Shown here in pieces: positions 33,132 through 39,292 of a stretch of 64,000 nt of DNA (within the stretch, counting starts at the first letter, position 1; each line of letters starts with the position of its first letter). This DNA comes from Escherichia coli (lineage in GTDB: Bacteria > Pseudomonadota > Gammaproteobacteria > Enterobacterales > Enterobacteriaceae), in assembly GCF_048403405.1 (NCBI RefSeq), contig NZ_CP183129.1. The stretch is one strand, 5' to 3'. The notes beneath the pieces are model-generated. The model worked only from the letters and a program-made list of their open reading frames with translations, did no database searches and was not told where the DNA came from. A program made the position numbers and the translations under genes.

Positions 33132-33566
33132 TCAGGGCAAGATTACGAAAGCCTGCTCCCCGCAAGGACTGACGCGAGAAATGACATGAATCGCTCCCCT
33201 GCGGCGACTCTTGTCATAAGAGTGCCGGAGCGTTTTTCCATCAATTACAATGACGTCTTTATCATCTGAAGAATGGCAGTCACGCATCCAGTTAATAAAG
33301 CACTCGTGAAATTTTTCAGGACTGATACAGGATACAACTCTGGCAATGGTATCGTGAACAGGAATACCATTTTCAAAATCACCATATTGCTTCAAAAAAT
33401 CGAGATGAGTTTCCCCAAAATCCTCTATATCTTCCCAACCTTCTGCACCAGAAATAACGGCACAAATAGTCAAAAGTAGAATATCTGACAATTTATGCTC
33501 CACTTTCCAGGCTTGTCTGTAATCGGGGATAATAGAAATATGTTCCATCAATTTTTTAAGTTTCAT
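33132..33566 (-). pseudogene. Truncated H-repeat-associated (ISAs1-family) transposase remnant, YhhI-like N-terminal fragment
   Basis: 144-aa [55 protein letters not shown].. matches the N-terminal third of the Rhs-associated H-rpt protein and then diverges into a short unrelated tail (..[14 protein letters not shown]); the C-terminal two thirds are missing. Confidence 0.7.
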
Positions 33567-33895
33567 TTTGTTCTCCTTAATTATGTAAGGAGTATTTGAT
33601 CATGTATAAGCAATGGAAAACAGCTTTAGGTAATAAGGAATATCTCAATTATTGAATATTTAGTGCGAATTATTTAGTACAAAAAAGCAGCGTTGCGTGA
33701 TCTTTCCCTGCCCTTTATTCATAAACACATGGATATGGTGATCAACGGTGGTCTGATGGAGGCGCAGAGCCTGAGTAATCATGACTGAATTTCAGCCTTC
33801 AGAAGCCAGAAAAATGGCTTTAATACAATCGCAGCCCCGCTTTTCACAACATTATGCTTATAATATGAAAAATATCTTGCCTTGCATCTTTGTGC

Positions 33896-34375
33896 CTACG
33901 GCATTGGATGATCTTTCCCTAACCTTATAGTTTCTTTTAGCCTTTCAAGCCTTAGCAATTCAACCTCGGCTTTAATATAGCCATGTGAGGCAGCCATTTT
34001 CAGCCAATTAATTGCATTATCTAAATTATAATATTTTAAATAGGAATCATCCTCCTCTGAGGATAGAATCATAGCATAATTATATTGCGCTATGATATTT
34101 CCTTGAGATGCAGACCTTGCCAGATATTTAATTTGCTTGGGTATATTAAAGCAAACATATGTATAATATTGATGTAATCGATATGACGCATCACCATCCC
34201 CGCCCTCAGATTTAATATCAAGTTCATATCTTTGATTTTCACTTAAATTAAACGATTCAGATGTTGAGCTTATTTCAATGTTATGGAGCTTAATAGGGGG
34301 GGGGATTTCACCTCCATATGAACAACAAGAGAAAAAGAAAACATTTGCAATCAGAATAAATAAAAAGCACTTCAT
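33896..34375 (-). CDS. Sel1-like repeat protein with N-terminal signal sequence; candidate immunity protein for the adjacent orphan Rhs toxin domain
   Basis: 159-aa ORF with hydrophobic N-terminus (MKCFLFILIANVFFFSCCS) and Sel1-like repeats (..AINWLKMAASHGYIKAEVELL..); starts 13 nt after the orphan Rhs C-terminal reading frame ends, with an SD-like aaaggtgg upstream. Confidence 0.55.
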   Translation of the reverse strand: MKCFLFILIANVFFFSCCSYGGEIPPPIKLHNIEISSTSESFNLSENQRYELDIKSEGGDGDASYRLHQYYTYVCFNIPKQIKYLARSASQGNIIAQYNYAMILSSEEDDSYLKYYNLDNAINWLKMAASHGYIKAEVELLRLERLKETIRLGKDHPMP

Positions 34376-34388
34376 GTTGCCACCTTTG

Positions 34389-35385
34389 TTATTTTATATC
34401 ACTTGGTCTCATAACTTTGCCAGGAGTGGAAGAAATGGGTTGACCTGAAGGTCCAAACGTTATCCAGCGGCCCATATTATTACCAGTTATGACATTATTA
34501 CTTGTGTCAATTGCCGAGATATTATCCGTAAGTCCTGTTTGGATCGTATTAAAAAGAGGAGTATTATTATCCCACGCCATCCATACTTGCCATTGTGTAT
34601 CAGCTCCAGTGACATTTGCATGAAGTGCTCTGGCTAACTTGCTGGCAAAAGATTTATCTCCCTCTCTGGCTGTACCACATGAGAATAATCAAACAGACAT
34701 TCCCTTTTTATAGCGTGGATTAGCTCTGATTCTCTTGGCTAATCCCTCAGCAGTTTCATAGTTTCCATTTTCATCTGTAATAAAACCAGGATATCCATGT
34801 CCTCCAATAGTAAAAACGCCAGGAATATTTATTTTATCTGTTGCAGCATGCAGTGATACATTTCTGCGTATCCCCTCATCATAGAAATTCATATCAGCTA
34901 ATCCAAAAGGGTCTATATACTGAACCGGATTCAACGGATACTCATAAAAATTCCATCCCCCCTTCAGCCCAATCGAATCCTGAGTGATATACCTCCCCTG
35001 CAGCGGGTCATAATAGCGGTGGCGGTTGTAATACAGGCCGGACTCCTCATCATACTGCTGACCCGGCAGGCGGATGAGTTGCTGCAGCTGTTGCGGGTTC
35101 TCTTCATTCAGCAGGTTGCCCCATTCATCGTATTCTGCGCACCATTCTGTTGCCCCTTCCGTGCTGATAAGCACCAGCGGCAGGCCGCGATGGTCGCAGT
35201 GGTACAGGTGGATTTTTCGCGCCGGCGTGTACACCGGGTCCATCTGGTTTTGCATCTGCTTCACCGTCAGGCCGCACGATGCCAGCCAGCGGCGGCTTTC
35301 CTCACTCACCCGGTCAGCCAGGATTTCACTTTCCAGCCGGTCGAGCATCTGCACCGTGCCGGCGGGAATCCCCCACTGTGCATAG
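34389..35385 (-). pseudogene. Orphan Rhs module: about 150 codons of Rhs core 3' end, then an alternative C-terminal toxin domain interrupted by one in-frame TGA
   Basis: Track ORFs 34689..35354 (221 aa, GTG start) and 34389..34580 (63 aa) are in the same frame, separated by a single TGA at 34689-34691 (..[19 protein letters not shown]..). N-terminal part is near-identical to the main Rhs core end ([42 protein letters not shown]); sequence after the DPxGL-type motif is unrelated to the main Rhs C-terminus. Confidence 0.7.
34893..35385. repeat. About 0.49-kb direct repeat of the main rhs 3' core region (39747..40240)
   Basis: Near-identical nucleotide stretch (for example ..ccggttcagtatatagacccttttggattagc.. 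against ..ccggttcagtatatagattcaatgggactggc.., then long runs of identity through ..gtcgagcatctgcacc..); the same sequence is read antisense by track ORFs 35019..35528 and 39940..40434. Confidence 0.8.
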
Positions 35386-35395
35386 GCAACTCACG

Positions 35396-37624: not shown

Positions 37625-37744
37625 CTGAATTCTAATTTGTTTGCTCCATAAATCAAATTCAATTTTTTTATTGGTCGATCACCAAGATATATTCTATCAA
37701 ACATATTACCCTCTATTCTAAAAATACTCAGGCATTCCACACAT

Positions 37745-38010
37745 TATATCAGCCTCATCTTGACTGCTTCCCGTTTCCCGATACGGCGGTGCGGGGAGTC
37801 ATAAAGGTAAGAAATTTCCAGCAGTACGGCGTCCTATTGTTCACGGCGGTAATGCACCAGCCAGTATTGGCTATCGTAGTGATAACCGTGTAATCTGCCG
37901 CCGCATCGCGTATCTAATGTTCATTCTTTTCCATAAACCGTCCGTACACATTGTGATAGTAAAAATACAATACATCTTCGCTGATGCGGTTATTCTGCTG
38001 CATGTGGGAA
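37745..38010 (-). pseudogene. Degraded Rhs core fragment (frameshifted, stop-containing vestige)
   Basis: Minus-strand translation across frames gives ..NNRISEDVLYFYYHNVYGRFMEK.. then, after a frameshift, ..YHYDSQYWLVHYRREQ..ISYLYDSPHRRIGKREAVK, paralleling the main Rhs ..[57 protein letters not shown]. Track ORF 37871..38074 is a frame artefact of this vestige. Confidence 0.55.
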
Positions 38011-38206
38011 GCGCCGAATACTGCTCCCGGTATGGCCAGTAATTACTATTTAGTACGACGTTAGGGGGAGTCACTTAATCTCACAGATACTTCAAGTAAC
38101 AGATGAAAATCGCTCCTGAAATGAAAAAGAAATTTTTTTGAATGTGTTCCTGTCAAATCAAGTGGTTTTTTCGTCGATATGTAGAGTCATATTGTACACA
38201 AAATAG

Positions 38207-38554
38207 TTATGAAACACACCTTGGTAAAATATTTGAATCGTCTGAACAGTGGATTATTTTGTGTATTACATCCAACGCTTGCCCATCTTTTTTCGCTATT
38301 AGTATTGTAAAATTTCCTCCTAACGTCTTCGGTTGTTTTCCCTCGATTTTCCAACAATTATTGTCATCTGTAATACTATATGGTTTCTGAAATTCTGCTT
38401 TTTCTTTCCCGTATATATATTTAATATAAACATATGATAATTCCAAAGCCATTTCACGACTATTTACTAAAATTTCCACTGAATTTTCTTTTCCAAATAC
38501 TGAGTGTGATATTGTAAACAATATCATAATAAGTAATATTAGTGAGTTTCTCAT
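38207..38554 (-). CDS. Small secreted protein of an Rhs-associated immunity-like family
   Basis: 115-aa ORF with signal peptide (MRNSLILLIMILFTISHSVFG); paralogous to the truncated ORF at 36343..36570. Confidence 0.5.
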   Translation of the reverse strand: MRNSLILLIMILFTISHSVFGKENSVEILVNSREMALELSYVYIKYIYGKEKAEFQKPYSITDDNNCWKIEGKQPKTLGGNFTILIAKKDGQALDVIHKIIHCSDDSNILPRCVS

Positions 38555-38722
38555 GCTCTACACCTATCGAATCTCAAAAGTTGTGGGTAAAACATTACAT
38601 TCAGAATATATGATATTCTTACCATCGGAATCCATTTTTCCAAATCGACCTTCTGGTGTTCCTGGATACCCATTAAGAACATATTTTTTCGAATAGTTAA
38701 TTTATTTTCTCAGGAAGAGATT

Positions 38723-39292
38723 TTATTTTTCTTCACTACGAAGCAGTTCATGCTGTACTTTTGTTAAACATTCGTAAGACTCATCTTTGTTCGGGAGATG
38801 TGCTGTCATTCGAGCATAAGTTGGCTTCTCATCTTTAAAATATTTAACCATGATTGAATTATCAAGGACTGCCAACAACTGAGCTGGATCACTGCTCTTT
38901 TTTTGATAGATACCCGCTCTTATATAACTTCTAAACCGATCGCCGAGAAACGCCGTTTTTTCTGCTGTATTTAGCAACTCCTGCAACGTTCCTTTGGTTG
39001 CATGATTTTCATTAAGGCGTAGTGATCCGACGCGAATTAAGAGTCTCGCCCCGCTTGGTGTGAATTTGTTATTTTTACATATACCAAGTTCTGTTTGCCA
39101 ATAATACTCACCTATGTCCTCATTCTGATACCATCTCCACATGGTTTTATTATTTAAGACAGGAAACGCGGAAAAAATAGTACCCTTAGTGAAAATGGTA
39201 AAGCAATCTTGATCTTTAGCTTGTGTTTCGCAATTAGCTATAACACCAAAACTAACGAATATCATCAGCAAAAAGAACAAAGCTCTTTTCAT
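38723..39292 (-). CDS. Candidate cognate immunity protein for the main Rhs C-terminal toxin domain (secreted, signal peptide)
   Basis: 189-aa ORF whose ATG overlaps the rhs TGA (minus-strand ATGA at 39289-39292), typical toxin-immunity translational coupling; N-terminal signal peptide [21 protein letters not shown]-rich. Confidence 0.6.

Follow-up and report, generated by a model that had tools for sequence, protein, structure and literature searches.

The 64,000-nt stretch of Escherichia coli DNA analysed here (contig NZ_CP183129.1 of assembly GCF_048403405.1; hereafter the window, to which all coordinates refer) carries on its minus strand, at 33132–39292, an array of small genes and gene fragments downstream of an rhs gene. 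On one side the array is bordered by yhhJ, which lies on the plus strand and ends at 32978, and on the other by the rhs gene, a minus-strand open reading frame (ORF) of 1399 aa, directly beyond which are nikR and nikEDCBA. The GC content is 33–42% over most of the array (33000–39500), versus 52–67% in the flanking yhhJ and rhs core (59–67% within the core, 40000–43500), and the single exception inside the array is the interval containing the orphan core fragment, at 54%. No type VI secretion genes were found near the locus within the window.

An initial annotation made from the letters alone had listed an AT-rich minus-strand array here. Each of the elements it named is present on that strand, at or near the position it gave, and is annotated in identical RefSeq genomes. 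In strain 4621, whose genome is 100% identical over this region, the Prokaryotic Genome Annotation Pipeline (PGAP) gives the order RHS element core protein, hypothetical protein of 189 aa, NTF2-fold immunity protein, DUF6258, two pentapeptide fragments, frameshifted NTF2-fold immunity protein, yibA, Rhs fragment with an internal stop, SEL1-like protein, IS630 fragment and ISAs1 fragment, in agreement with Pfam and NCBIfam scans. From the rhs gene toward yhhJ, and including remnants of insertion sequences (IS) and of an H-repeat (H-rpt), the features are as follows.

39289–43488, minus strand: full-length rhs, 1399-aa ORF, at the nikR/yhhJ locus ('position 9', rhsB); PGAP 'RHS element core protein'.
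39292–39762, minus strand: variable C-terminal toxin tip of the main Rhs, homologous to the ybfO tip; without a Pfam match.
38723–39292, minus strand: YbfC homolog, 189 aa, with a signal-like N-terminus; annotated ybfC in other strains.
38207–38554, minus strand: orphan Imm-NTF2-2 gene, 115 aa (PF15631, 1.1e-17), with a signal-like N-terminus.
37771–38003, minus strand: divergent Rhs core vestige, 39–57% aa identity to RhsA residues 923–1004 by tblastn.
37718–37775, minus strand: end of a toxin tip, the last ~13 codons and the stop (...DEADIMCGMPEYF before the stop), 90% nt identity to record L011; translations compared.
37304–37624, minus strand: DUF6258 gene, 5'-truncated, 106-aa ORF (PF19772, 1.9e-15).
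37139–37182, minus strand: 44-nt remnant of an rhs core 3' end, 82–86% identity to other core copies.
37077–37138, strand unassigned: IS3 terminal fragment, 62 bp, 95% identity to IS3 copies in many records.
36690–37067, minus strand: deletion-fusion ORF, a pentapeptide match plus RhsB residues 1384–1411 at 71%.
36343–36718, minus strand: frameshifted yhhH homolog (Imm-NTF2-2), three tblastn pieces in different frames at 58–89% identity; also frameshifted according to PGAP.
35396–36238, minus strand: intact yibA, 99.3% aa identity over 280 residues (NF007244, 463 bits).
34389–35366, minus strand: orphan Rhs module (RHS_core, TIGR03696), 73% aa identity to the yibJ product.
33896–34375, minus strand: Sel1-like protein, YibG homolog at 39% aa identity, with a signal-like N-terminus.
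33702–33830, minus strand: IS630-family transposase fragment (PGAP).
33139–33716, minus strand: H-rpt remnant (ISEc1, ISAs1 family, yhhI homolog), delimited by alignment with K-12; ISAs1/H-rpt fragment at 33132–33566.

The main rhs gene belongs to the locus in which it lies. It is 95.96% identical at the nucleotide level to the K-12 rhsB region, in an alignment that runs unbroken from the 3' end of nikR, and its core shows ~96% nucleotide identity to the K-12 rhsA and rhsB cores. The encoded protein consists of a YD-repeat core ending in a PxxxxDPxGL-type motif, followed by a unique variable tip of 150 aa. This tip is homologous to those of the K-12 rhsC-locus orphan (ybfO) and of the O157 rhsC-locus Rhs gene, with 95.9% nucleotide identity to a feature of K-12 DH1 labelled ybfC and 'RHS repeat-associated core', and its family is narrow, spanning E. 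coli, Salmonella and Phytobacter. Just downstream, the ATG of the ybfC homolog overlaps the rhs stop codon as ATGA; its product is probably the cognate immunity protein of the main tip, translationally coupled to it.

The similarity to the rhsC locus extends well into the array. The interval 37139–40794 is colinear, at 95.7%, with the rhsC-locus orphan array of ATCC 8739, in which an orphan Rhs tip, ybfC, an NTF2 gene, DUF6258 and a core vestige follow one another; thus the main Rhs bears the tip that in K-12 is present as the silent orphan ybfO. The ybfC-type segment occurs just once in the chromosome of at least one genome of the lineage (H153). The 115-aa Imm-NTF2-2 protein is a paralog of YhhH (41% aa identity). 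Beyond it, the tip end at 37718–37775 comes from the tip that precedes DUF6258 in porcine enterotoxigenic E. coli ETEC6333, and the first ~25 codons of the DUF6258 frame, present in intact copies of 130–133 aa, are interrupted by stop codons and lost here; this is probably a decayed orphan immunity gene. The 44-nt core remnant marks the distal limit of this rhsC-type segment, and the 62-bp IS3 end sits at the exact seam between it and the pentapeptide fragment, which hints that a past IS3 copy was involved in forming the junction. Separately, one genome of the lineage (H151) has a complete IS3 inside the array.

On the far side of the seam the array takes on an rhsB-type character. The interval 36777–37076 corresponds to the 5' two-thirds of a pentapeptide-repeat gene, and in the resulting ORF ~97 aa of pentapeptide repeat are continued, without a change of frame, by the final 28 aa of an RhsB-type (DUF4329) tip. 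The sole full-length relative of the pentapeptide portion is a protein of 165 aa, 65% identical, from Salmonella salamae Rhs arrays. In the contigs of Salmonella enterica subsp. salamae concerned (L012–L014), this relative comes after a DUF4329 tip and an Imm-NTF2-2 gene; in one contig an IS630-type transposase intervenes. Pentapeptide-repeat proteins may represent an under-described immunity family of Rhs arrays. Positions 36776–35892 align with the K-12 rhsB tail, yhhH and yrhC at 92.3%. The element at 36343–36543, previously listed as a truncated paralog, is part of the frameshifted homolog of yhhH, the immunity gene of the RhsB-type tip.

The next modules resemble the K-12 rhsA region. Over 1497 nt (36290–34795), the window is 94.8% identical to the K-12 rhsA tail, yibA and yibJ, and the 5' neighbour of yibA is the last ~32 nt of an RhsA-type tip. 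The orphan Rhs module comprises ~150 aa of core 3' end, matching RHS_core positions 1111–1261, and a diverged yibJ-type tip that is interrupted by one tryptophan-to-stop nonsense codon (34689–34691) relative to the intact copy of ETEC6333. In that strain the intact yibJ-type tip is carried by a full-length Rhs at the rhsC locus and is likewise followed by the Sel1 gene. The Sel1-like protein is probably the immunity protein for the orphan tip, and the orphan tip itself would currently be silent.

The distal end consists of IS debris. The IS630 scrap moves together with the Sel1 module. Of the H-rpt, 537 bp from the left part and the last ~40 bp are left, on either side of a 713-bp internal deletion at 33179/33180: positions 33716–33180 correspond to 5329–5865 of the K-12 rhsB region (L005), and 33179–32701 to 6579–7057 of the same record. 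What remains of its coding sequence specifies YhhI residues 1–133 (95%), and the final 37 nt of the element are also kept; compared with a complete H-rpt of ~1.3 kb encoding a transposase of ~378 aa, this is a dead remnant. Its junction with yhhJ is identical to that in K-12. Between yhhJ and the remnant lies a ~90-bp element (33043–33133), 91–92% identical to a plasmid IS1397 flank and to the sequences bordering the two copies of IS1397 that strain 4621 has near its rhsA region; it is probably a repeat of the kind targeted by IS1397, namely a bacterial interspersed mosaic element or repetitive extragenic palindrome.

Toxin-tail scraps lie ahead of yhhH, yibA and DUF6258. The decayed elements are the H-rpt, the orphan tip, yhhH, DUF6258 and the pentapeptide fusion, and rhs with its ybfO-type tip, ybfC, the 115-aa NTF2 gene, yibA and the Sel1 gene are probably functional. 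Signal-like N-terminal sequences can be read in the YbfC, NTF2 and Sel1 proteins; such secreted-looking immunity proteins suggest that the matching toxins act in the envelope. The four intact immunity genes (ybfC, the 115-aa NTF2 gene, yibA and Sel1) may still protect against the matching toxins of competitors.

Earlier work provides a framework for this arrangement. Rhs tips are exchangeable and toxic, an adjacent small protein neutralises them, and new tips displace resident ones downstream to give dissociated arrays (PMC2935791). Tips are common to positions 5, 9 and 10, whose cores are almost identical, and tip exchange between loci has been described (PMC2935791). Orphan modules can be toxic/immune pairs (PMC3150448), and a passage of the same paper that cites Vlazny and Hill 1995 has the yibA product neutralising the K-12 RhsA tip. 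Recombination can, in addition, fuse orphans to the main gene (PMC3967940).

We asked where else the same blocks occur. In the dog isolate 19KM1776, an 8.4-kb block colinear with 35082–43489 of the window lies between yibF and yibH, that is, at the rhsA locus. Its limits are the rhs start codon and the orphan core fragment, and both the pentapeptide/RhsB-tail fusion and the IS3 scrap seen in the window recur within it. The two blocks are 97.6% identical overall, with patches ranging from 94 to 100%, which argues for repeated recombination rather than one recent copy. In O104:H4 C227-11 and in ABW_A19, an rhsB-type tip, yhhH, yibA and the orphan are found at the rhsA locus, with yibG after the orphan in C227-11, and at the rhsC locus of ETEC6333 (ybfA/kdp) a full-length Rhs carries the yibJ-type tip, Sel1, the IS630 scrap and an H-rpt. 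In strain 4621, which represents the lineage of the window, the yibF/yibH locus (L006, 7258–12746) has a full-length Rhs whose tip is different, together with a hypothetical protein of 136 aa and an Imm57-family gene, and is devoid of yibA. Judged from these alignments, blocks of the array have been exchanged between rhs loci, a long-established behaviour of Rhs elements. The blocks are bounded by the 5' end of rhs, by points within core fragments and by H-rpts, all of which are repeats able to act as homology arms. Within the window, two direct repeats of the core 3' end (34897–35196 and 39746–40045) are 92% identical and 4849 bp apart, with the 44-nt vestige between them. If these repeats recombined, the orphan tip would be placed on the main rhs and the five intervening modules would be lost; because of the nonsense codon in the orphan, the product would be truncated.

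These comparisons clarify the standing of the rhsA resemblance, which the initial annotation had implied to be anomalous at a nikR-linked locus. A whole-locus alignment to K-12 rhsA and rhsB shows that the resemblance is real rather than superficial: the order HEAT-repeat protein, orphan Rhs, Sel1-like protein and H-rpt is homologous to yibA-yibJ-yibG, with 94.8% nucleotide identity over 1.5 kb and protein identities of 99.3%, 73% and 39%. The description holds for the distal part of the array; the upstream half is instead of the rhsC-locus ybfO/ybfC type, which had been missed. The idea that arrays are common to different rhs loci was well founded, as the same blocks recur in 19KM1776, C227-11, ABW_A19 and ETEC6333. 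The anomaly itself disappears, since K-12 rhsB has yhhH, yrhC and the same H-rpt/yhhJ junction. The proposal that the array is a reservoir of uncharacterised small proteins needs to be narrowed, as several of these are pseudogenes or fragments of known immunity families.

To place the configuration within the species, we surveyed 5426 complete E. coli genomes by megablast. The whole 6.4 kb is present at ≥99% identity in 234 genomes, and the full yibA/orphan/Sel1 version adjoins yhhJ in 237. The composite junction occurs in 252 genomes, 234 of them at ≥99% identity, and the yhhH-yibA-orphan adjacency in 1184. With 234 independent complete genomes showing the same arrangement, both chance and an assembly artefact are ruled out. 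A distinct configuration in this lineage, as had been suggested, agrees with its confinement to 234–237 near-identical genomes. Two genomes with the exact array, those that were checked, are documented as sequence type 38 (ST38) (PMC7311804, PMC12838234), and NMBU_W05E18 is typed as phylogroup D. The array could be used as a marker for this lineage. The rhs position between nikR and yhhJ is occupied in at least 2047 of the genomes, including Shiga toxin-producing O103 and O111 strains and ST38. In 2009, occupancy was inferred from 20 genomes to be confined to the K12/HS/ATCC8739 lineage (PMC2935791); it is wider than that impression.

The K-12 version of the locus is informative about the yibA module. 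In K-12, yrhC matches the initial ~400 nt of the yibA region at 97% identity and lies directly against the left end of the H-rpt, and this truncated yrhC/H-rpt junction is seen in 1810 of the 5426 genomes. The K-12 rhsB locus thus carries yhhH, a 5' fragment of yibA and the same H-rpt/yhhJ junction, which indicates that the yibA module belongs at the nikR-linked locus. In other words, the yrhC pseudogene of K-12 is the stump of a yibA gene that is still complete at the same locus in ST38-associated genomes. The 2.2 kb absent from K-12 corresponds to 35891–33717 of the window and directly adjoins the left end of the H-rpt; such a gap fits an IS-adjacent deletion in the K-12-type lineage.

Taken together, these data lead us to conclude with considerable confidence that the locus is the downstream tip/immunity array of an Rhs polymorphic-toxin locus at nikR/yhhJ, orthologous to K-12 rhsB, and a mosaic of displaced modules. 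Of each displaced module there would remain an immunity-family gene and a scrap of toxin tail, of core, or of both. The stack would have been built by serial C-terminal displacement together with homologous recombination, with the conserved core 3' ends, and probably H-rpt copies, serving as portable homology, and blocks would have been swapped between strains as well as between the rhsA, rhsB and rhsC loci.

Several results weigh against this reading or limit it. A promoter/terminator scan returned 24 promoter-like sites, versus 23.5 expected from shuffled sequences. Pfam scans gave no domain match for either the ybfO-type tip or the intact yibJ-type tip of ETEC6333, and an AlphaFold model of the ybfO-type tip, built on a shallow alignment of 15 sequences, was unusable (mean predicted local distance difference test score 41, predicted template-modelling score 0.15). 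YbfC is also without a match in Pfam, and NCBIfam has none for the ybfO-type tip, YbfC, the 115-aa NTF2 protein or DUF6258.

Alternative histories can be envisaged. One is a recent block transfer, in which gene conversion between near-identical cores copied rhs and the whole array from the rhsA to the rhsB locus or in the opposite direction. The 8.4-kb colinear block found at both loci in different strains, with the same fusion and IS3 scrap, is what such an event would leave, and recombination between rhsA and rhsB is the founding observation in the field (PMC2935791, PMC3150448) and gave rhs its name. However, the blocks differ by 2.4% overall and in patches, so that the event was not recent or not single, and the different tip with Imm57 at the rhsA locus of strain 4621 means that the donor was not the resident rhsA locus as it now stands. 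A transfer of this kind is plausible, although we would put its chance at somewhat below even. We are more doubtful of a purely vertical history, in which the full yibA/yibJ-type/Sel1 array is ancestral at the nikR locus, K-12 types are derivatives that lost the 2.2 kb next to the H-rpt, and the distal half arose without inter-locus transfer. The nikR-rhs and H-rpt/yhhJ junctions, the same as in K-12, and the yibA stump abutting the H-rpt left end in 1810 genomes would all be expected under it. Yet the Sel1/IS630 scrap/H-rpt junction also occurs at the rhsC locus of ETEC6333, the proximal 8.4 kb lies at the rhsA locus of 19KM1776 with patchy identity, making recombination between loci certain somewhere, and an exchange between yibA and the H-rpt could just as well have restored the full array. 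Finally, we give almost no credence to the AT-rich segment being some other island, such as a phage-defence island or prophage remnant merely beside rhs, and dropped the defence-island reading: the low GC content, IS fragments and small ORFs of unknown function could be read that way, but PADLOC gave only weak HEAT-repeat matches, each ORF is an immunity-family gene or an Rhs fragment with homologs that all lie in rhs loci, and integrase and tRNA genes are lacking.

A further reading, which we think unlikely, has two parts. The ybfO-type tip with YbfC and the yibJ-type tip with Sel1 could be two undescribed families of envelope-acting Rhs toxins, and the intact yibA, NTF2 and Sel1 genes retained in the ST38-associated array could be expressed and cross-protect this globally spreading clone against the Rhs toxins of phylogroup A and B1 competitors. 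The two toxin tips, being without recognisable domains, are candidates for characterisation. The phenomenon is otherwise textbook Rhs biology, already known and already annotated in RefSeq, and the value of the locus, little beyond that, is as a clean, well-resolved example of Rhs arrays built from modules that circulate among rhsA, rhsB and rhsC.

Elsewhere in the window, Rfam identified a chuA/shuA 5' untranslated region thermoregulator ahead of an ORF of 660 aa, and also two AgrB antisense RNAs (dinQ-agrAB region), at 207–238 and 10467–10785; both findings are ordinary. The chuA element is consistent with a chuA-positive phylogroup, such as D. An AT-rich interval at 24132–27689 (31–39% GC) contains, upstream of yhiI, two large ORFs (557 and 540 aa) that look paralogous; the second is annotated DUF4049 in an identical genome and presumably belongs to the yhiJ/yhiL family.

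Among known systems, the K-12 rhsA region ('position 10', yibF/yibH) shares with the array yibA at 99.3%, a yibJ-type orphan whose core fragment is 94.7% identical and whose tip is homologous, then a secreted Sel1/TPR protein and, last, an H-rpt scrap. It differs in that the array here is at nikR/yhhJ, not between yibF and yibH, that the RhsA tip is cut to ~32 nt, and that the yibS/yibW/yibV module of K-12 is absent; in addition, the orphan tip (73%) and the Sel1 protein (39%) are diverged alleles, not near-identical orthologs. The K-12 rhsB locus (nikR-rhsB-yhhH-yrhC-yhhI-yhhJ) has the same flanks and insertion junctions, the same succession of yhhH and yibA sequence, and the same right junction of the H-rpt. 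Here, in contrast, 3 kb of rhsC-type modules stand in place of the RhsB tip, yhhH has a frameshift, yibA is full-length and followed by the 2.2 kb that K-12 is without, and the H-rpt has its 713-bp deletion. The orphan array of the rhsC locus ('position 5'; ybfO/rhsO-ybfC in K-12, with an extended ybfC-NTF2-DUF6258 form in ATCC 8739 and O157:H7) is colinear at 95.7% through the tip, ybfC, NTF2, DUF6258 and the core vestige, whereas here the tip is on a full-length Rhs and at another locus. Measured against Rhs/CdiA displacement and orphan toxin-immunity arrays in general (PMC2935791, PMC3150448, PMC3967940), the locus has the same architecture and the same inferred mechanism, with no essential difference.

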